IMG/VR virus record: IMGVR_UViG_2778261056_000006 | Span: 1 to 42,371 of that record | Direction: 5' to 3' (one strand) | From: a virus | Taxonomy: Duplodnaviria > Heunggongvirae > Uroviricota > Caudoviricetes | Length of the DNA: 42,371 nt | Shown: positions 1,645 through 30,696 of the stretch, piece after piece | How the letters are laid out: every line of letters begins with the position of its first letter | Position numbering within the stretch: position 1 is the first letter of the stretch | Notes under the pieces: model-generated | Told to the model about the DNA's origin: nothing | What the model saw: only the letters and a program-made list of their open reading frames with translations | Databases searched by the model: none | Translations under genes and position numbers: made by a program

Positions 1645-4600
1645 TTATGCCTGAGTACGCAGCGCTTCAAGGCGGCGCAGGTCGAAGTCGTTCAGTTCGT
1701 CGGTGTAGTCAGCAGTGATTGGCGCTGGCCATTCACCTGTGTCGAATCCGGTTGCGATATTGCGCATCGCTTTGCGGTACTCGAGCATACCCAGCTCCAG
1801 TAGTTCAGCGGATGCCTCGATGATGGCGATCCAGTGGTAGTTCTCGTCTTTGTTGACGAAAATCCAGAAGAACTGATCCAGCGCTGCGGTTTCGCAGTAC
1901 ATAGCCGCGCTCAGGTGATAATCACGTTCAATAATTTCCCGGTGTAGCCTGGCGCGCAGGCTTTCCTGCTTAACATTCCACATGCTGATGGTTTTCAGGT
2001 CTGCACCTATACGCACGCCATCCAGGTCGATCTCAAGGTCAGGGCGCACACGAACTTCCAAGCCCGTCTCCTCGTCAAAACCAAAGTAGCTCACCTCAAC
2101 GGCTCGGCTAGGGTGGGTCAGCAGCATGCCGGCGGTCGGGTGTGCCAGAAGCGCTTTTTGAATATTCAGCGCGGTGCTCAGCTGCTGGCGGGTGACCAGC
2201 ACTTTTCCTTCCGGGTTATCGCGCCAGGCATCCAGCAGTTCGTCGGCAAATACGGCATCTGGTTTGACTGCCTTCACGGCCTGGATCATGTCTGCTTTGG
2301 TACCGGACACTTTCAGTGGTGCCGGTTTCTGTGCTTCCTGAGCCACAAGGTCAGGGTTGATGATTGCCAACTGCTCCAGCAGCGCGTCACGGCTGCCGCT
2401 GGTTTTAACCGGCGGCGGCAGGGTGGCGTTGTACTCTTTAATGCATGCCTTCATTGCCGTCGCCGTCTGCTTCTGGTCACCATCAATACGCTGGAAGTCA
2501 GCTGGCAGCGCCATATAGTTCTGTGCCGTTTCTTCCAGGTTAGCGCCAAGCGGAACCTGCGGCGGCAGGGTGGCGTTGTACTCTTCCAGTAACACCTTGA
2601 TGTCGTCGGCAGACAGCAGCGCCGGCAGGCTGGCATTGTGCTCATCGATAAAGGCGCGCAGGGTCGCGGCCGTTGTGAATGCGCCTTCAGGGATCACCGG
2701 TTCAACGCTGAATTCTGCGTCCAGTAGTTCAGGCTGCAACGCCAGCGCATGCACCAAGTTGCCCATGTCCAGCACCGCTGAGCGCTCTTTGACGATGGTT
2801 TTCTCTACGTGGCGCGCATTGAAGTACATCAGCGAAACGCGCGCATCTTTCACCTGGGTTGAGCTGATGCCGTTGGCGGCGTGGTAAACCTCGTTTGGCA
2901 GCCCTTCATAGCGGCCTGGCTCGAAATAAGCGGGATAAACAACAGCCGGTTCGTCAGATTGCGCTTCTGGCTCGGTTTGTGCTGCAACTGGTTCGGTTTG
3001 GCTTACAGAATCGCTATTTTTGGCGACAGAATCCGTATTCTGGTTTACATCGTCCTTCTGGCTGGTATCTGACTCTTCACCAGACTCCAGACTGCTTTCG
3101 CCTGGCTGTACTTCATCACCAGCTTGTTTTTCATCACTGACAGTTTCTTGAACCTGCACATTGCTGGTGGTCTCCGTAGCCTTTTTCGTGCCATGAGTTG
3201 CTGAGTTCTGCAGCAAAGCCGTAACGTCGAATATTCCGTTGCCGACATTTTTAACCAGTTCTTGTTCGACTTTCTGCGGTTGTGCTGCCGCTTCCTCTGC
3301 GCGGCGGCGTGCTCCTTCTTCACGCACGCGTTGCAGGTTCTCTTCGTGAGTGCAGAAGGATTTGCGCGGAGACTCCTTACCTTCAGGTTGGGGAATTTCC
3401 TGTGCTGCGGGTTCAGCCTCATGCAACGGCAATAACTCGACCGCGGAATTGAACGCGGCTGTCATGGTCTGGTTAACAAATTCCAGGTGAGCGACAGGAG
3501 TTAAATGAATATTTTCCGGTGCGATACGTACCAGGTTAAAAATAGCCGTGCGGTTAACACCCAGAACGCCTGGCTGATTGCGCAGGATGTTGCTCCATGA
3601 TTTCCATGGTTCTTCTTTTTTGGTCACGATTTCTTTAGCGCGACGAAGAATGCTGCCCGGGATCTCGAAGTGGTTGAAGTCCATAGGCAGAAGGGCACAC
3701 GCAATCTCTAAATCGAGAGTGTCCAGTGTGTGGTGTGCGTCAGGTCCACGGTCAGTGACGTAACCGCCGTCGGCATTAGTGCCGGAATCAGTACGCTGCA
3801 CACTACTGATGCGATTACCGGCGGCCCATTCGCGAACGAGGATACCGCGGTCGATGTGATCTGTAGCGAACCACAATTTCAAAAACTGGATTAAGGTTGC
3901 GAGTTCAGGGATTTTTCCATCGACAGGGAAGACTTTCTTAACGGCATTCACGACTTTATGAATATCGTGCTCAATGGCTTTTTTGAATGCTTCCACATTC
4001 TCAGCTGCCAGCAGCAGGTTCTGGACGTACGCGTCATCGGTGTCCATCTCAAGGCGGACAATCTCATTTTTCTGCCCTGCGTCGATGTGATAGAGATATT
4101 CACCATCACCGATGAACTGAGCCAGTACGCGCTGGCGGAATGGCAGGGTGGCAACAACGATCAGGTTCGGTTGCTGTGTCTGCTGGGATTGCTCTTCGGT
4201 ATCGACTTCACCATCAACGACGCCACCTTCTGCCCGGCCGTTCTCGTCGGTCTGGATACCGTCCTCAACAGTGAGATCTTGACCCGTTGTAACGTCAGCA
4301 GCGTTGCTGGTTTCAGTTTTGAGCAACTGCAACTTACCACTGCGCCAGTCTTCTACCAGTTGATTGCGGTCACCGGCATCGGTGTTCACCCAGTCAGACA
4401 TGAATGCAGCGATCAATCTTGGTTCGTGCTCTTCGTCTGGTGTGAAAATGTCCTTAACCGCCCGAATCATTTTCCACTCAGCATTCAGGCTGAGTTTGGC
4501 GGTCGCGGGCACATCGTTCCTTGCCACAAGCAGGCTATGGAGATATGTATTGCCTTCATCCAGTGACATTTCGCTGGCAGCCAACTGCTGCTCTTTAGTG

Positions 4601-5034
4601 ACGTGGGTTTGGTATTTATCGTTCATCAGATGGACGGCAAAGCGGACCGCTGGAGTACGGTTTTCAACCGGGACAATTTCGGACGCAGTCGCATCTTCAA
4701 CGATTACGGTCGGAGTAGGTGTGTAGGGGGCGTCAACGGAACCAGTAGACACACCAGCGGCTTTTGGCAGCCAGGTGCGCCCATCGTCCTGAAGCTCGTA
4801 GCGATCACACCAGGTAAAATCAACTTCACCTTCTTTCGGCAGGCCGTCGACAACTGGGAAATCAGTGCGAATCGGTTTGGCGTAGTCCTTACCCCGACCT
4901 GTTTCGATACCTGCATCTTCCAGCGCAACATCCAGCATCAGATTGGCGCGAGCCTCGGTTTTAGCAGTGAACCAGACCACTGCATCTTGCTTTCCGGATT
5001 TCTGAGTGGCTTTAACCACATTAAAGAATTCCAT
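1645..5034 (-). CDS. recE: exodeoxyribonuclease VIII (RecE), enlarged variant
   Basis: 1129 aa; N-terminus (SGKQDAVVWF...FPVVDGLPKEGEVDFTWCDRYELQDDGRTW) and mid region (DRGILVREWAAGNRISSVQRTDSGTNADGGYVTDRG) closely match E. coli Rac RecE; C-terminal PD-(D/E)xK-like nuclease segment (RVRPDLEIDLDGVRIGADLKT). Confidence 0.8.
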   Translation of the reverse strand: MEFFNVVKATQKSGKQDAVVWFTAKTEARANLMLDVALEDAGIETGRGKDYAKPIRTDFPVVDGLPKEGEVDFTWCDRYELQDDGRTWLPKAAGVSTGSVDAPYTPTPTVIVEDATASEIVPVENRTPAVRFAVHLMNDKYQTHVTKEQQLAASEMSLDEGNTYLHSLLVARNDVPATAKLSLNAEWKMIRAVKDIFTPDEEHEPRLIAAFMSDWVNTDAGDRNQLVEDWRSGKLQLLKTETSNAADVTTGQDLTVEDGIQTDENGRAEGGVVDGEVDTEEQSQQTQQPNLIVVATLPFRQRVLAQFIGDGEYLYHIDAGQKNEIVRLEMDTDDAYVQNLLLAAENVEAFKKAIEHDIHKVVNAVKKVFPVDGKIPELATLIQFLKLWFATDHIDRGILVREWAAGNRISSVQRTDSGTNADGGYVTDRGPDAHHTLDTLDLEIACALLPMDFNHFEIPGSILRRAKEIVTKKEEPWKSWSNILRNQPGVLGVNRTAIFNLVRIAPENIHLTPVAHLEFVNQTMTAAFNSAVELLPLHEAEPAAQEIPQPEGKESPRKSFCTHEENLQRVREEGARRRAEEAAAQPQKVEQELVKNVGNGIFDVTALLQNSATHGTKKATETTSNVQVQETVSDEKQAGDEVQPGESSLESGEESDTSQKDDVNQNTDSVAKNSDSVSQTEPVAAQTEPEAQSDEPAVVYPAYFEPGRYEGLPNEVYHAANGISSTQVKDARVSLMYFNARHVEKTIVKERSAVLDMGNLVHALALQPELLDAEFSVEPVIPEGAFTTAATLRAFIDEHNASLPALLSADDIKVLLEEYNATLPPQVPLGANLEETAQNYMALPADFQRIDGDQKQTATAMKACIKEYNATLPPPVKTSGSRDALLEQLAIINPDLVAQEAQKPAPLKVSGTKADMIQAVKAVKPDAVFADELLDAWRDNPEGKVLVTRQQLSTALNIQKALLAHPTAGMLLTHPSRAVEVSYFGFDEETGLEVRVRPDLEIDLDGVRIGADLKTISMWNVKQESLRARLHREIIERDYHLSAAMYCETAALDQFFWIFVNKDENYHWIAIIEASAELLELGMLEYRKAMRNIATGFDTGEWPAPITADYTDELNDFDLRRLEALRTQA

Positions 5035-5174: not shown

Positions 5175-5462
5175 TTAACTGACGGCTACGATCGCCTCAT
5201 TCATAAAATCTTGCTTGTATGTACGGTAGGTTCCCCAGCCGGCGTAATCGCTATCGCTGATTTTGAGTACCAGCAAGCTGATCTCCTCAATGGCGCAGTG
5301 CGGGCAATCAAACTTGCCAAGCACATAGCCACCGTCGAGAATGACTGTTGTTTCACCGTTTGTAGTTGAGTGAATAACGCCTGATACTTTCTTCTCGCAG
5401 TTGAATGCAGCCACTTCTTTATTCACTGCTTTCAGGTTCATTTCGATTTTTACGATTTCCAT
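5175..5462 (-). CDS. hypothetical early-left protein
   Basis: 95-aa ORF in the leftward early operon between recE and the PL-like promoter. Confidence 0.5.
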   Translation of the reverse strand: MEIVKIEMNLKAVNKEVAAFNCEKKVSGVIHSTTNGETTVILDGGYVLGKFDCPHCAIEEISLLVLKISDSDYAGWGTYRTYKQDFMNEAIVAVS

Positions 5463-5547
5463 AAAATCTCCAGTTGTTAAATTAAGGGTGTAAGAAGCCG
5501 CGCCAAATTAATGGCGAATTTTTCATTTCATATTTCAGGACTGCTAT

Positions 5548-5709
5548 TTAACTTTCGTGCGCCATCTGGTCGTATTCAGCGCATTGCTTAGAGCAATATT
5601 CTTTTTCTTTCTGTGCCAGTTGCGAACCGTTGAGATAGAGAAGGGTGCTCTTGATTACTTCCTCCGTTTTAACCGGCTTGCCGCAATATCCGCATTTCTT
5701 GTCTAACAT
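5548..5709 (-). CDS. small zinc-ribbon protein (YdaE-like position), absent from ORF track
   Basis: 53-aa ORF found by manual translation: MLDKKCGYCGKPVKTEEVIKSTLLYLNGSQLAQKEKEYCSKQCAEYDQMAHES; CxxC...CxxxC motif; strong SD GGAGG 5 nt upstream of ATG at 5709. Confidence 0.55.
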   Translation of the reverse strand: MLDKKCGYCGKPVKTEEVIKSTLLYLNGSQLAQKEKEYCSKQCAEYDQMAHES

Positions 5710-5720
5710 GACATCCTCCG

Positions 5721-6071
5721 CTAGTGGCTGAGTCCATGCCCCAGACCGTTCAGATAAACTTCAACCAGCAAATCCTTGGTGTAAGTCATCTCCACGCCGC
5801 GATGCAGATACAAACGTCCGCGAGCGTTAGCTGATGCCGTCCAGGTTGAGTCTTTGTGTTTGACGAGCATCCCCGGCTGAACTGCGCCGCGGTTTACCGT
5901 CTGTGTACCGTAGTGCTGATGAACCATGATGTTCTCCACTATTGCTGAGTGAACTTCGCTGGTGGTGCCGTGGTGCTGATCTTCACAGTTGAGCGTTTTA
6001 ACTCTGCAGTTCACCACCGCGAAGCTCACTCTGTGCTTTGCCCTTGTCGCCAGGCTGGCGGAACGTTTCAA
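5721..6071 (-). CDS. hypothetical protein, first gene of leftward operon (Kil-like position); start uncertain
   Basis: 116-aa ORF beginning with TTG; internal ATGs at residues 49 and 68 would give a 68- or 49-aa product; directly downstream of the PL-like promoter. Confidence 0.35.
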   Translation of the reverse strand: MKRSASLATRAKHRVSFAVVNCRVKTLNCEDQHHGTTSEVHSAIVENIMVHQHYGTQTVNRGAVQPGMLVKHKDSTWTASANARGRLYLHRGVEMTYTKDLLVEVYLNGLGHGLSH

Positions 6072-6170
6072 ACCTACTGCGCGTTAATCTCACCACCTCA
6101 TTCCGGTTTTCGTATGCCCCGGACGGCTACTTCGTGGGCGTCCTGCTTTGGTGGTTGTGTTGATGGAGTA

Positions 6171-6199
6171 AGTAAAACACCGCTTTACCATTAAGTCAA
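6171..6199 (-). promoter_or_regulatory. PL-like leftward promoter overlapped by operator OL (GTAAAACACCGCTTTAC at 6172-6188)
   Basis: On minus strand TTGACT(-35, 6199-6194)-17 bp-TTTACT(-10, 6176-6171); operator dyad GTAAA-N5-GCTTTAC overlaps spacer and -10; near-identical to the PR arrangement. Confidence 0.5.
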
Positions 6200-6261
6200 G
6201 CAATGCAGATTCAAAAGGTAAAGCATAGCTGTATGTTGGGCGAAATTTATCCAGATTAGAG

Positions 6262-6513
6262 ATGATTGCATCAACTAAAAGTGTGTATGATGAAAAAAAA
6301 CATCATTGGGGGTGGGATGTGGAAAAGTTCTACGTGGGTTACAACGATGTATGTCAGGCGGTAGGTAGAGCGACGCTGAATCTGATATCACATGGAGACG
6401 CGCCAACTACTGAGGCGATCATTTCAATGCTTGAGTCGCTGGGGGATATTGAGAAGAACGATTTTTGGCGGCAGGTGTTCAGGTTTGCTGCTGAGGAAGT
6501 GCGAAAAGGGTAG
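6262..6513 (+). CDS. hypothetical protein (rightward gene between OL and the repressor operon)
   Basis: 83-aa ORF with ATG start, convergent with the repressor operon, ends at a shared hairpin terminator. Confidence 0.5.
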   Translation: MIASTKSVYDEKKHHWGWDVEKFYVGYNDVCQAVGRATLNLISHGDAPTTEAIISMLESLGDIEKNDFWRQVFRFAAEEVRKG

Positions 6514-6518
6514 GCAAT

Positions 6519-6550
6519 AAAAAACCCGGCGCAGTGGCCGGATTATTTAC
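6519..6550. terminator. bidirectional intrinsic terminator between convergent genes
   Basis: A6 run, stem CCGGC(6526-6530)/GCCGG(6537-6541) with 6-nt loop, then AT-rich tail; U-run available on both strands. Confidence 0.55.
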
Positions 6551-7154
6551 TATTCTGAGGTGCAGGTGCAGGTGCAGGTGCAGGTGCAGGTGCAGGTGCA
6601 GGTTGTATTATCTCGACAGGTTTTAGATGAGATTGCACTTGGGGCAACGCGAGAATTACGGCAAGCAATGCTAAAATGGCACCAACCATCCACTGAAGAG
6701 TGGCTGATGTCGTCTTTAAACCATCGATCTGCCCTTTTAATCCTTCGATTTGTCCTTTTAGGCCAGTAAACTCACCATTAACCCCTGAAATCTGAGCTTT
6801 AATTTCCGACATAGAGGTATTCATTGCAGAAAACTGCTGCGCTTGAAAGGCCCTAAATTCAGCCATTTCACGCCGCATCTCGGCGGCCACTACATCCACC
6901 TCTGCTTTGTTCTGAGCAAACTTGGCGTCAAGTTCTTCCCTTGAGATACCCACAGCATCTACCTCAGCATCTTCGCCTTTAACAATGGTTTGACTTTTAG
7001 ATAATGGATTCGTTCTACTTTTCCCCATTTTTGTTAAAATCGGGTTTTTCGGTCGAATATTTACCACATCCGCTTTTTCATGATATGCGGGCATGTGAAA
7101 TGCGTCAACTTTGACGTCAGGCGACGAGGTTTTGCGAATTGAGGCTCCATCCAC
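6543..7154 (-). CDS. membrane-anchored coiled-coil protein with C-terminal (Pro-Ala)n tail
   Basis: 203 aa; heptad-like GLKGQIEGLKGQIDGLK, one predicted TM helix (WMVGAILALLAVILAL), then PAPAPAPAPAPAPAP encoded by a hexanucleotide repeat; GTG start at 7154 (alternative ATGs at residues 21 and 43). Confidence 0.55.
   Translation of the reverse strand: MDGASIRKTSSPDVKVDAFHMPAYHEKADVVNIRPKNPILTKMGKSRTNPLSKSQTIVKGEDAEVDAVGISREELDAKFAQNKAEVDVVAAEMRREMAEFRAFQAQQFSAMNTSMSEIKAQISGVNGEFTGLKGQIEGLKGQIDGLKTTSATLQWMVGAILALLAVILALPQVQSHLKPVEIIQPAPAPAPAPAPAPAPQNSK
6559..6602. repeat. hexanucleotide microsatellite (GGTGCA)7 = minus-strand (CCTGCA)n encoding (Pro-Ala)n
   Basis: Seven perfect tandem copies read directly from sequence, inside the 3' end of the 6543-7154 CDS. 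Confidence 0.9.
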
Positions 7155-7159
7155 TTAAA

Positions 7160-7465
7160 TTAATCCTGCTTTTTAAGTTCGCGCTCAAAGGGTTCAATGA
7201 GACCCGGATCCATAACAGTAGCATTAAGTATTGCTTGAGCCATGTTTTTTGCCATAGACATTGGTAGAGTGACTGAACTAGTAGCCTCAAGAAACATATT
7301 CACCCCAGCTTCAGTATTCGTTTCATCAGGAATGTTCAAGTTGTCGACCACATGTCTACAAAAAGTAATGTGGCAATAGGCATTATCTCCGACATTCATT
7401 CCAGTAGTTATAAAAACATCCGCAAATCCAGCGTTGTAGTCTTTAGATTTTTTGATTTCTGGCAT
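7160..7465 (-). CDS. hypothetical protein
   Basis: 101-aa ORF with SD AAGGAG upstream of ATG at 7465; co-oriented with the repressor genes. Confidence 0.55.
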   Translation of the reverse strand: MPEIKKSKDYNAGFADVFITTGMNVGDNAYCHITFCRHVVDNLNIPDETNTEAGVNMFLEATSSVTLPMSMAKNMAQAILNATVMDPGLIEPFERELKKQD

Positions 7466-7505
7466 ATCTCACTACTCCTTCATTTTAAGATGAAATTGTC
7501 TTGCA

Positions 7506-7916
7506 TTATTCCATATCACCCTTAATCCGCCGCCCCATATACTTGGCGTACAGTTCATCGAGTTCTTTCAATCGTAGAGATACGATCCGCAACATGTTCT
7601 GTTGTTCTTCTTCGTTTGGGAGTTGATTATAGAGTTCCAACAGTCTCCGTTCGTCGTGTCTCAAACCGTCCTTAGCATCCACGTCCTGACCTAGAACCCA
7701 CTCAAGACTTACGCCTAGCGCATCGGCAAGTTTTATTGCTGAGCTTTTTCCTATCGCTCCTCTGACAAACCAGTTGTTGACTGATTGTGCGCTCACACCA
7801 CAGATTCTCGCTATATCCGCTTTGGATATGCGCTTCTTCTCGATGATTTCATTTAACCGCCGAACCTGCGGGTTATCTGTTTGGTGTGTGTTTTTTCTCA
7901 TGTACAAGAGTATCAC
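7506..7916 (-). CDS. XRE-family HTH regulator, paralogue of the prophage repressor
   Basis: N-terminal HTH (ISKADIARICGVSAQSVNNWF), C-terminal segment nearly identical to the adjacent repressor (LELYNQLP.EEEQQNM.RI.SLRLKELDELYAKYM.RRI.GD); ORF starts at GTG 7916, first ATG at 7901. Confidence 0.65.
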   Translation of the reverse strand: MILLYMRKNTHQTDNPQVRRLNEIIEKKRISKADIARICGVSAQSVNNWFVRGAIGKSSAIKLADALGVSLEWVLGQDVDAKDGLRHDERRLLELYNQLPNEEEQQNMLRIVSLRLKELDELYAKYMGRRIKGDME

Positions 7917-7920
7917 TTAG

Positions 7921-8304
7921 CTAATCAGCATCGCCCCTGATTCTGCGATTCATGTACTTGGCATATAGTTCATCGAGTTCCTTCAGACGCAGGGAGAAGA
8001 TCCTTATCATATTCTGCTGTTCTTCTTCCGGTAACTGTCTGTAGAGCTCCAGAATACGTTGTTCATCAGGCTTAAGGCCATCCTTCTCTCCAACATCCTC
8101 ACCAAGTAGCCAGGGGACGGATACCCCAGCAGCATCAGCAACCGCTAATGCAGAACTTTTGCTGATTCTTCCTGTTTTGAACCAACTGGAAACAGCTTGC
8201 TTACTGACGCCAGCAACCCTGGCCATCTCTGTTTTAGAGAAACCTTTCCGGTTCAGTTCTGTAAGCCTGGAGATCAGCCCAGTAGTCATTGTGTTTTCGC
8301 TCAT
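7921..8304 (-). CDS. CI-like prophage repressor (short XRE-HTH type, no S24 peptidase domain)
   Basis: HTH (FSKTEMARVAGVSKQAVSSWF) plus C-terminal oligomerisation-like domain; divergent from the Cro-like gene across an operator region; in-frame ORF extends to 8388 but that would bury the operators in coding sequence, so ATG 8304 (or 8289) is the likely start, possibly leaderless. Confidence 0.6.
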   Translation of the reverse strand: MSENTMTTGLISRLTELNRKGFSKTEMARVAGVSKQAVSSWFKTGRISKSSALAVADAAGVSVPWLLGEDVGEKDGLKPDEQRILELYRQLPEEEQQNMIRIFSLRLKELDELYAKYMNRRIRGDAD

Positions 8305-8313
8305 TTCACTAGT

Positions 8314-8330
8314 GTAAATGATTGCTTTAC
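8314..8330. promoter_or_regulatory. operator site OR-a (GTAAATGATTGCTTTAC)
   Basis: 17-bp dyad GTAAA-N5-GCTTTAC, one of three copies in the window, just upstream of the repressor start. Confidence 0.55.
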
Positions 8331-8351
8331 CAGTAGGTAGGCATTCATTGA

Positions 8352-8380
8352 TTGACTCATTGGTAAAATGATGCTTTACT
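8352..8380 (+). promoter_or_regulatory. PR-like rightward promoter overlapped by operator OR-b (GTAAAATGATGCTTTAC at 8363-8379)
   Basis: TTGACT(8352-8357)-17 bp-TTTACT(8375-8380), followed by SD AAGGAGG and ATG 8402; operator overlaps spacer and -10. Confidence 0.6.
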
Positions 8381-8401
8381 TTTTCCATCTAAGGAGGTCC
8401 T

Positions 8402-8626
8402 ATGACTGGTATTGAGAAAGCTATTCAAAAGTTTGGCACAGGTGCGGCACTCGGAAGAGCGCTTGGATTTTCAAAAATGACAATTTCCAACTGGAAGAAA
8501 ACTGGCATTCCGCCCGATCACATTCGCTCTGTTTTTGAGCTTACGGGAGTCACCCCGCATGAGTTGCGGCCTGACTTATATCCCAATCCAACCGATGCCT
8601 TACCAGTGCAAGAAACGAGGGCATAA
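8402..8626 (+). CDS. Cro-like HTH regulator (YdaS-type)
   Basis: 74 aa; HTH (AALGRALGFSKMTISNWKK) and HELRPDLYP motif typical of Rac YdaS-type Cro analogues; strong SD; divergent from repressor. Confidence 0.7.
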   Translation: MTGIEKAIQKFGTGAALGRALGFSKMTISNWKKTGIPPDHIRSVFELTGVTPHELRPDLYPNPTDALPVQETRA

Positions 8627-8628
8627 CC

Positions 8629-9168
8629 ATGCAGTCACTGTCACTTCATCAAAATAGCGGATATCAACCGGCTGCGATGATAAATCGCAATCAACCTGTC
8701 TCGGTAGATAAACATGACCAGATCCGCGATGCCGTTCGTGCGTGGGCGGGTGTAGATGGTCAGGATGTCGTTTCTGCTCTGATCATCGAAGAGTACCAGG
8801 CTCAAGGGGGAGACGAGATCACTTTCCCTGATGACCTCAGCCGACAGCGTCAGAAGCTTTTCCGCTTTCTGGATAACCATTTCAACAGCGAACGGTACCG
8901 CGAAAACGTTCGCCAGCTGACTCCGGCAATCCTCGCTGTCCTGCCGATTGAATACCGCAATCGTCTGCTACCAGAAGACAACGTAATGGCTCGTCTGGCA
9001 AGGCTGGAGAAGGAAACCAGCGAAGCGAAGATTGCTGTCGCAATGGATGCGCCACGTCATCAGAAGCTGAAAGAGTTGAGCGAGGGGATCGTGGAGATGT
9101 ATCGCGTTGACCCTGGGTTAACCGGTCCGTTGATGGAAATAGTGCAGATTATGCTGGGGGCTATATGA
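8629..9168 (+). CDS. YdaT-like regulatory protein (CII position)
   Basis: 179 aa directly after the Cro-like gene (4-nt gap); position and loose motif resemblance to the Rac YdaT family. Confidence 0.5.
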   Translation: MQSLSLHQNSGYQPAAMINRNQPVSVDKHDQIRDAVRAWAGVDGQDVVSALIIEEYQAQGGDEITFPDDLSRQRQKLFRFLDNHFNSERYRENVRQLTPAILAVLPIEYRNRLLPEDNVMARLARLEKETSEAKIAVAMDAPRHQKLKELSEGIVEMYRVDPGLTGPLMEIVQIMLGAI

Positions 9169-29646: not shown

Positions 29647-30696
29647 ATGGAAAATGTTTTTGATACCAGCGTGCTGGTGCAGGTTGTTCCTAACCTGAAA
29701 ACCAGTCAGAACTGGCTGCTCGATCGCTTCTTCCCGAATGTCGTGACTTACGAGACTGAAGAAGTGGCGATTGATGTTGATGTCGGCCTGCGTCGTATGG
29801 CGCCGTTCGTCTCCCCGCTGGTGGAAGGTAAGCTGGTCGAATCCCGTAAATACCAGACCAATACCTTCAAACCGGCATACATCAAAGATAAGCGCGCTCC
29901 GGACCTGCGCAAACCTATCCGCCGCCAGATTGGTGAGCGTATTGGCGGGGAATATACCGCTGCCGAGCGCGAAATGCTGAACCTTCAGTTTGAAATGACT
30001 GACCAGATTGACATGATCAACCGTCGTCTGGAATGGATGGCGGCGAGTGCGCTGGTGTCTGGGACCGTAACCGTCGCCGGGGAGGGCTATGAAACTAAGG
30101 TGGTGGATTTCGGGCGTGCTTCGGATCTGACCATCACTCTTAGCGGCTCGGATAAATGGCCACTGACCGTTGCAGCTGGCGCTACCAATACCCAGCCATC
30201 AGATGACATTGAAATCTGGCAGACTACTTTCCTGAAAGAGTCCGGCTCTGTCGCCACGGATCTGGTCTTTACGAATAAGTCATGGCGTGCATTCCGACTG
30301 GATACCACCATCAAGGATAACGCCATTACATTCCCGGCGCTGAGCCCGTTTGGTAACCAGATTAACGCCGGCCCACAGGTAATGAAGGGCGCAATTTATA
30401 AAGGGCGCTGGGGTAACTTTGACCTCTGGTTATATAACGACTGGTTTATTGACCCGCTGGACAACGTCGAGAAGCCTATGATCCCCGATGGCGCTGTCAT
30501 TATGAGTGGTGCCGATCTGATGGGTACCCGCGCCTTTGGCGTTATCCTGGACCCGGCTTTCAACTACGGTCCGCTGGCTTATGCGCCAAAATCCTGGGTG
30601 AAAGAAGATCCAGCCCAGCGTCTTATCCTGATGCAATCCTCCCCGCTGGTTATTCCGAGCCGGGTAAATGCATCCCTCTGCGCAACGGTGGTCTGA
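29647..30696 (+). CDS. major capsid protein (lambda gpE family)
   Basis: 350 aa from first ATG 29647; N-terminus (LLDRFFP) and overall pattern match lambda E. Confidence 0.8.
   Translation: MENVFDTSVLVQVVPNLKTSQNWLLDRFFPNVVTYETEEVAIDVDVGLRRMAPFVSPLVEGKLVESRKYQTNTFKPAYIKDKRAPDLRKPIRRQIGERIGGEYTAAEREMLNLQFEMTDQIDMINRRLEWMAASALVSGTVTVAGEGYETKVVDFGRASDLTITLSGSDKWPLTVAAGATNTQPSDDIEIWQTTFLKESGSVATDLVFTNKSWRAFRLDTTIKDNAITFPALSPFGNQINAGPQVMKGAIYKGRWGNFDLWLYNDWFIDPLDNVEKPMIPDGAVIMSGADLMGTRAFGVILDPAFNYGPLAYAPKSWVKEDPAQRLILMQSSPLVIPSRVNASLCATVV

Follow-up and report, generated by a model that had tools for sequence, protein, structure and literature searches.

A 42,371-nt phage sequence (IMG/VR record IMGVR_UViG_2778261056_000006; the whole stretch is called the window below) carries, behind two repressor genes of the helix-turn-helix (HTH) type, HTH1 and HTH2, a pair of genes encoding a 101-amino-acid (aa) protein and a 203-aa membrane protein. 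The membrane protein belongs to the gp48 family of phage HK97, and pairs of the same design recur behind prophage repressors. The most likely role of the pair is that of a prophage exclusion or abortive-infection device, an assignment that we make with moderate confidence. The region forms the distal portion of the lysogenic operon (that of the repressor-maintenance promoter, PRM) of a lambdoid prophage of the Rac/Gifsy/mEp237 type. Genes of the gp49/gp48 type have been visible as unnamed open reading frames (ORFs) since the HK97 genome was sequenced, and no defence model, curated functional family or paper assigning a function to them was found.

Placement of the gene pair behind repressors

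All four ORFs that the initial annotation described within 6262-7916 were found at those coordinates (Table 1). Its placement of the genes between the repressor and the leftward operator was confirmed, and the leftward promoter and operator (PL/OL) were mapped just to their left, at 6171-6199. The minus-strand genes are separated by gaps of 4-40 nt, and 6523-6544 is the sole minus-strand terminator between 8388 and 6500. As had been proposed, this terminator is bidirectional, with its stronger side serving the minus-strand repressor operon and its weaker side the small plus-strand gene. In view of the short gaps, the ribosome sites and the single terminator, co-transcription from PRM is the natural reading, and HTH1, HTH2, the 101-aa gene and the 203-aa gene would then share one transcript.

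The initial annotation had named ordinary early lytic functions of the N/kil/cIII type, expressed from PL, as the outcome that would speak against its proposal. The pair does lie in an early-left neighbourhood, with kil 600 bp away. However, PL fires away from the pair, whose genes are upstream of this promoter and have their own terminator, and in HK97, HK542 and a Providencia prophage the pair also precedes PL and N. The early-function explanation was excluded on these grounds and retains almost no probability.

The 101-aa protein is the obligate upstream partner of the 203-aa protein. The two genes were adjacent and co-oriented in all 56 loci compared, and an abutting partner ORF was found in 45/45 IMG/VR loci. 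At every locus the gene for the small soluble protein preceded that for the membrane protein, and the two overlapped or were 5 nt apart; the order repressor, partner, membrane protein held in 11/11 hand-checked loci. A repressor was immediately upstream in 41 of the 44 assessable IMG/VR loci (26-27 S24-type cI, 7 short HTH and 7 Mnt/Arc repressors). Because the pair almost always lies directly behind whichever repressor maintains lysogeny, it is probably made in the lysogen. In the other three loci the pair was a moron on the opposite strand inside a tail/head gene cluster, with no repressor nearby. One of these contigs (L037, 2468-3471) encodes a 96-aa partner of a type close to that of the window (class A-like, see below) and a 235-aa protein with a (PA)8 tail, on the opposite strand among tail/head genes and adjoining a lipoprotein gene. 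This arrangement indicates that the module can function as a free-standing moron.

The initial annotation had likened the position of the genes to that of rexAB in lambda. Comparison of phages supports this likeness and generalises it to many enterobacterial prophages. HK97 has the order cI, gp49 (88 aa), gp48 (216 aa), PL, N. HK542, which has lambda immunity and lambda-like PRM, PL and rightward promoter (PR), has cI, a 144-aa gene, a 206-aa gene and PL; its pair stands where lambda has rexAB, and the pair of HK244 (lambda immunity) is likewise at the rexAB place. A Klebsiella phage has cI followed by 88-aa and 182-aa genes, and the Providencia prophage has an S24-type cI, 150-aa and 188-aa genes, an equivalent terminator and N. 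The same layout, with S24 or short HTH repressors, was found in Serratia, Enterobacter, Salmonella, E. hormaechei and Buttiauxella. The interval behind the repressor also holds rexAB in lambda and bstA in BTP1. Morons are known to occupy the stretch between repressor and N (PMC7067206).

In P22-like E. coli prophages the order is mnt, a 95-aa gene, a 192-aa gene, a 75-aa gene and then ejection-protein genes. The pair of these prophages thus occupies the slot between mnt and gene 16, in which P22 keeps sieA (PMC10461980). The 75-aa protein (L006, 5608-5835) follows the pair, has two predicted transmembrane (TM) helices and belongs to phrog_7294; it could be a third component in P22-like prophages.

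The slot behind the repressor is variable, and relatives of the window phage carry different cassettes there. mEp237 has gp34-gp37, HK225 has the HK97 immunity block with gp49 and gp48, and another E. coli prophage has a single 117-aa gene. In E. coli 23CRST046 (L019, 1944-2806) the slot holds a gene for a 149-aa protein (weak phrog_5893 match) followed by one for a 136-aa coiled-coil protein with a C-terminal TM helix, which matches phrog_2990 and, weakly, XhlA/holin-like PHROGs. These two genes probably represent the same kind of pair in a more distant form.

Coupling of the pair to three unrelated repressor types (S24 cI, short HTH and Mnt) is also what would be expected if it modulated the lysis-lysogeny switch or induction in the manner of lambda RexA or 434 Hex, in one version as a membrane-tethered or sequestered regulator. 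434 Hex is encoded on the PRM transcript and is reported to influence repressor cleavage (PMC3564112). However, the same core lies behind repressors with quite different inactivation mechanisms, three loci have it as a stand-alone late-region moron with no repressor nearby, and close relatives such as mEp237 do without it. We consider a switch modulator quite unlikely.

Architecture of the two proteins

The initial annotation recognised no family for any of these proteins. This held for RexA, RexB and SieB; the 203-aa protein, however, is not an orphan. Its residues 45-181 match phrog_5820 (E 8.2e-46, 157 bits), a family of unknown function, and tblastn against phage genomes found HK97 gp48 as a relative (E 7e-16) together with proteins of HK225, HK542/HK244 and two Klebsiella phages. 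HK97 gp48, the HK542 206-aa protein and the P22-like 192-aa protein all match phrog_5820. A search of 5.8 billion protein clusters returned 34 related clusters, from Enterobacterales only, which are annotated 'hypothetical' or, rarely, 'DUF1640'.

The protein had been described as a coiled coil with a single TM helix and a (Pro-Ala)n tail, and hydropathy, the AlphaFold2 (AF2) model and the translation bore this out. It consists of a variable head (residues 1-67), the motif SREEL (71-75), a helical stalk (72-150), one TM helix (about 152-172; mean Kyte-Doolittle hydropathy 2.3) and a (PA)7 tail. In the AF2 model, residues 1-71 are disordered and helices span 72-125 and 133-169. An alignment of 24 sequences showed that SREEL is invariant, the stalk is conserved and one TM helix is present, and that the N-terminal region and the often Pro-rich tail are variable; R72, E74, E85, M93, G158, L161 and P171 are invariant. 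Since there is no signal peptide and the lone TM helix is near the C-terminus, the protein appears to be tail-anchored, with head and stalk in the cytoplasm and the (PA)n tail predicted to be periplasmic. The general design put forward in the initial annotation, a membrane-anchored protein with a soluble partner, is real and was seen across the homologous loci.

DUF1640/CCDC90-like proteins (PF07798; MCUR1/CCDC90B-type) likewise combine a coiled-coil stalk with one TM anchor at the C-terminus, and SREEL stands at the stalk start, where DUF1640 has its beta-layer motif (PMC4786415). The analogy with DUF1640 makes a trimeric stalk probable (PMC4786415). Several family members carry a precomputed PF07798 match; the 203-aa protein, however, scored 21.2 bits (E 2.9e-4) and did not reach the Pfam cut-off of 33.5, and no bacterial function has been assigned to DUF1640 itself.

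On the minus strand, (GGTGCA)7 at 6559-6600 codes for the (Pro-Ala)7 tail. Otherwise identical proteins have 5 (P0001), 7 (window), 11 (L003) or 14 (L002) copies, and (GGTGCA)n is evidently an in-frame hypervariable microsatellite among strains. The tail is missing from several homologues and is therefore not the core of the function. A polymorphic tail predicted to be periplasmic, on a membrane protein probably expressed in lysogens of gut Enterobacterales, might instead point to a lysogenic-conversion factor for the host envelope or virulence, comparable to lambda bor/lom and without an anti-phage role. This is improbable: the tail is dispensable, nearly the whole protein is predicted to be cytoplasmic, and a swappable cassette of head and partner suggests a target in an arms race and not a fixed host function.

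An internal translation start is predicted in the 203-aa gene at the boundary between head and stalk. An in-frame ATG or GTG was present 2-7 codons before SREEL in 41/41 unique family genes, and a strict Shine-Dalgarno sequence (GGAG, GAGG or AGGA) preceded it in 35 of them; the same combination of start and Shine-Dalgarno sequence occurred in 1.1% of the other 7-codon windows of the family genes. Judged by eye, ~18-20 of the 24 distinct boundary sequences had a good motif 5-9 nt from the start, and all four multi-member classes were represented. In the window, initiation at Val68 is predicted to yield a headless 136-aa isoform (6543-6953) consisting of the stalk, TM helix and tail. The internal start is also where some gene calls in databases begin, for example P0016 (136 aa) and the L016-type proteins. 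The long form is evidently translated as well, because the head ORF is open in all classes and its ratio of nonsynonymous to synonymous substitution rates (dN/dS) is below 1 where measurable (0.16-0.72; the estimates are saturated and indicative only). This predicted nested isoform design is an observation new here. A promoter-like sequence, TTGACG-17-TATCAT (10/12 matches; 7080-7108, minus strand), lies within the head-coding part, upstream of the internal start. It could drive a transcript for the short isoform only, as PLIT does for rexB; taken alone, it is statistically indistinguishable from chance.

An AAGGAG ribosome site precedes the 101-aa gene, whose stop codon is 5 nt ahead of the 203-aa start. 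The protein (class A) had 21 homologue clusters with 34 invariant columns, and a profile search of 1.84 billion representative proteins found just 8 clusters (50% identity). No match was obtained in Pfam, PHROG, NCBIfam or PADLOC. The AF2 model shows three beta-strands and a C-terminal helix, and a Foldseek search of BFVD with this model returned nothing at E <= 0.001. Similarity to HK97 gp49 was marginal: the family profile scored 18.7 bits, over the ITF-x-RH and C-terminal helix motifs, and BLASTP gave 27% identity across 64 aa. The pair genes have 39% and 46% GC compared with 51% for the whole window, a moron-like composition. The exact window pair was present in 3 of 5,426 complete E. coli genomes, and ~60 more carried diverged relatives.

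Partner proteins fell into 8 BLAST clusters. Class A (96-101 aa) includes the window protein and has no PHROG family, class B (141-162 aa) is phrog_5893, class C (92-108 aa) is phrog_4231, and the gp49 class (88 aa) is phrog_26809. The stalk and anchor of the membrane protein are homologous across all classes. When the head was defined as all residues before SREEL, head clusters tracked partner clusters and none was common to two partner clusters; the adjusted Rand index was 0.89 for the 56 loci and 0.79 for the 35 unique pairs. A class B partner for P0010 was predicted from its head type alone and then confirmed (the partner is 64% identical to that of HK542). Since each head type comes with its own partner family on a constant stalk and anchor, the small beta-sheet partner may bind the disordered head.

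Co-variation of partner and head would also fit an addiction or toxin-antitoxin-like module, in which a membrane toxin and an upstream, translationally coupled antidote stabilise the prophage and could abort infections as well. The order of a small soluble and then a membrane protein at all loci is compatible with such a module, as are the weak XhlA/holin-like matches of the L019 membrane variant. However, no toxin-antitoxin family matched in Pfam, PADLOC or NCBIfam, placement follows the lysogeny repressor and not generic mobile-element positions, and a prophage held by its repressor would have little need of an addiction module there. An addiction module is therefore unlikely.

Exclusion as the favoured role and its relation to known systems

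In the favoured reading, exclusion or abortive infection, the operon would supply in order the resident HTH1, a stowaway heterotypic HTH2, the 101-aa partner and the 203-aa protein, followed by the terminator, with PL/OL beyond. The partner and the head would set specificity or hold the complex off, and the anchored stalk would be the membrane effector. The headless short isoform could co-assemble with the long form, and the ratio of long to short form would tune activity, as with SieB/Esc and lambda S107/S105.

The closest known relatives are gp49/gp48 of HK97 and their counterparts in HK225 and HK542/HK244 (PHROG 5820, with partner PHROGs 26809, 5893 and 4231), which share the membrane family, the two-gene layout and the position between repressor and PL. 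The window differs in its partner class, which lacks a PHROG family and has marginal similarity to gp49, and in its head. With lambda RexA/RexB the pair shares the slot after the repressor and before PL/OL, a terminator at the end, and one soluble plus one membrane component. There is no sequence relationship, and RexB has several TM helices, whereas the window protein is anchored by one C-terminal helix and has a long coiled coil.

SieB/Esc of P22 and lambda is membrane-associated and expressed from the prophage, as the pair probably is. SieB gives rise to a second, shorter polypeptide made within the same reading frame (PMC7067206), a product that is only predicted for the pair. The two are not homologous, sieB lies in the PL operon and not behind the repressor, and no antisense RNA was identified here. 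Ranade and Poteete reportedly gave further detail on the nested SieB/Esc product in 1993. P22 SieA, whose slot the pair takes in P22-like prophages, is also a prophage-expressed inner-membrane protein. However, SieA is polytopic, works alone and blocks DNA injection (PMC10461980), whereas the window protein has one TM helix, is mostly cytoplasmic by prediction and has an obligate partner, and there is no homology. The module thus resembles RexAB by position and two-part design and SieB/Esc by its predicted nested product, and is homologous to neither.

Several observations weigh against an exclusion function. PADLOC 2.0 gave only a match to the coiled-coil-type LmuB (E 0.035) for the pair, and members of the HK97, HK542 and P22-like pairs had no PADLOC match below E 0.01. 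No match of the pair to the RexA, RexB, SieB or SieA families was found in scans of Pfam, PADLOC, NCBIfam and PHROGs at the thresholds applied, and in Pfam and NCBIfam the 203-aa protein had only sub-threshold coiled-coil matches. In the literature on HK97 gp48/gp49, HK244/HK542 and DUF1640 in prophages, no functional study was found. The function is argued from guilt by position, and expression in the lysogen from operon geometry. Both structural models are weak; the predicted local distance difference test (pLDDT) score was 64.6 for the 101-aa protein and 54 for the 203-aa protein, and the latter model was kept out of the fold search. The internal Shine-Dalgarno sequence overlaps conserved Glu codons, and its conservation could partly be at the protein level. 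Linkage of adjacent DNA would yield the same head-partner pattern without binding.

A broader and more tentative proposal, which we consider possible and do not regard as the probable outcome, is that the gp49/gp48-type pair is a widespread unrecognised abortive-infection/exclusion switch linked to cI, short HTH or Mnt repressors. It would be a trimeric tail-anchored coiled coil with two nested isoforms, in which the swappable cassette of partner and head senses, or is triggered by, different invaders and the isoform ratio gates membrane damage, with a stowaway repressor alongside. If so, one lysogenic operon would give immunity to two immunity groups as well as an exclusion device. The slot behind the repressor has a recurrent uncharacterised occupant, found also in the sieA slot of P22, which makes the pair a strong candidate for a new prophage defence family. 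HK97, which carries such a pair, is a fully tractable model and allows an immediate test of the hypothesis; the stalk and anchor that stay constant, the head and partner that are exchanged and the predicted nested isoform offer mechanistic handles.

Repressors and control sites of the immunity region

The early region of the window resembles that of coliphages mEp237 and HK225 and, more distantly, that of Gifsy-1 and Gifsy-2. The pattern GTAAA-N7-TTTAC had three perfect sites in the window (6172-6188, 8314-8330 and 8363-8379), and six matches with at most one mismatch against 0.77 expected. These sites are taken as operators of OL and of the rightward operator (OR) from their position at the promoters; PL and PR have the same arrangement of -35, spacer and -10 as mirror images.

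Table 1. Features of the early-left and immunity region of the window (operators are predicted from sequence).
Feature	Position	Strand	Remarks
RecE	1645-5034	-	
YdaE-like	5548-5709	-	
kil	5721-5927	-	
Untranslated leader	between kil and PL		about 240 nt
PL/OL	6171-6199	-	
PL promoter	-35 6199-6194; -10 6176-6171	-	-35 TTGACT, 17-nt spacer, -10 TTTACT; points leftward to kil
OL1 operator (predicted)	6172-6188		GTAAAACACCGCTTTAC; overlaps PL spacer and -10
Second operator-like site, imperfect	6218-6234		GTAAAGCATAGCTGTAT
Convergent small gene	6262-6513	+	
Bidirectional intrinsic terminator	6523-6544	both	hairpin AATCCGGCCACTGCGCCGGGTT then TTTTTTATT (minus strand); overlaps stop codon of 203-aa gene
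203-aa gene	6543-7154	-	
Internal ribosome site and start (predicted)	6951-6965	-	GAGG 6965-6962; GTG 6953-6951 (Val68)
101-aa gene	7160-7465	-	
HTH2	7506-7901	-	also readable from GTG 7916
HTH1	7921-8304	-	ORF up to 8388
OR/PR	8314-8380	+	
OR operator (predicted)	8314-8330		GTAAATGATTGCTTTAC
OR operator (predicted)	8363-8379		GTAAAATGATGCTTTAC; overlaps PR spacer and -10
PR promoter	-35 8352-8357; -10 8375-8380	+	-35 TTGACT, 17-nt spacer, -10 TTTACT; rightward to cro
cro (YdaS-like)	8402-8626	+	
cII (YdaT-like)	8629-9168	+	

HTH2 (131 aa) is a Cro/CI-type protein without an S24 domain and matches HTH_3 (34 bits, cut-off 23) and Phage_CI_repr (25.4 bits, cut-off 22); its start is most likely ATG 7901. 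It had been described as a repressor paralogue belonging to the accessory genes. The relationship stood, as HTH2 is 61% identical to HTH1, the repressor adjoining cro, and the C-terminal halves are nearly identical. However, HTH2 is not an accessory of the pair; it is a repressor complete in itself and represents another immunity type. A prophage in E. coli 2022CK-00450 has a 100% identical protein as its sole repressor; the gene there faces cro across OR, and the same 101-aa and 203-aa genes come next. In that phage type, OR and OL each contain two perfect TAAAC-N5-GTTTA palindromes, four in all, and the same four sites were found in two more prophages with HTH2-type repressors. The window contains no TAAAC-N5-GTTTA site, even with 1 mismatch; in it HTH2 is not a maintenance repressor with cognate operators at OR and OL, and its gene sits behind HTH1. 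Since an identical protein is the sole repressor elsewhere and its operators are absent here, HTH2 is evidently an intact repressor of another immunity group, and it most likely adds immunity to that second group.

Among the 5,426 complete E. coli genomes, the solo arrangement was present in 11 and the tandem junction in 4; mEp237 has a second repressor (73% identical) in the same place. Tandem repressors suggest a simple route to wider immunity, and the arrangement may be a snapshot of how new specificities arise. Counting against a separate immunity specificity, the operators of both the HTH1 and HTH2 types are built on a TAAA-N7-TTTA scaffold. Cross-binding of HTH2 to the resident operators is possible, as are HTH1-HTH2 heterodimers formed through the common C-terminal half. 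An assignment of OL to HTH2, with one operator region per repressor, was rejected; the OL site is of the HTH1 type and identical to that of mEp237.

The true start of HTH1 is probably Met29, at 8304, because the alignment with HTH2 begins at this residue and a start at 8388 would place the operators 8314-8330 and 8363-8379 within the coding sequence. A -10-like TACACT is found just upstream of ATG 8304, suggesting that the PRM transcript has little or no leader, as is the case in lambda. The resident repressor ORF (7921-8388) is usually annotated as a 155-aa protein.

The window, mEp237 and two E. coli prophages share >95% identity in the leader from PL to kil (5928-6165), despite their differing operators and immunity genes. 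It holds GC-rich hairpin-like segments, and no N gene is present; the leader could be a regulatory or antitermination RNA. An Rfam scan of 5400-8700 gave one match only, at chance level.

The convergent gene that the initial annotation placed against the shared terminator is present and ends there. Its 83-aa ORF starts at ATG 6262; however, the conserved core is 64 aa long and starts at GTG 6319, and the gene is separate from the pair. Most of its 19 homologue clusters are 64-66 aa long and begin with MEKFYVGY, and the 19 extra N-terminal codons are not conserved. The 83-aa protein had no direct Pfam match to DUF2767 (PF10965), and BLASTP against neighbouring 'FumD'-type proteins gave nothing. 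Related prophages encode small helical proteins at the corresponding convergent position, and hhalign matched the family to these with 92.8% probability; they include a true DUF2767 protein (127.8 bits; YdhZ, PGAP name 'FumD'). The gene thus appears to encode a distant DUF2767/YdhZ('FumD')-like helical protein. It is a component of the Rac/Gifsy-type backbone, and since the HK97, Providencia and P22-like versions of the pair lack it, it is not part of the module. In mEp237 (L001 about 3180-3430; record about 30090-30340) the 83/64-aa gene is intact, and it is unannotated in either GenBank record.

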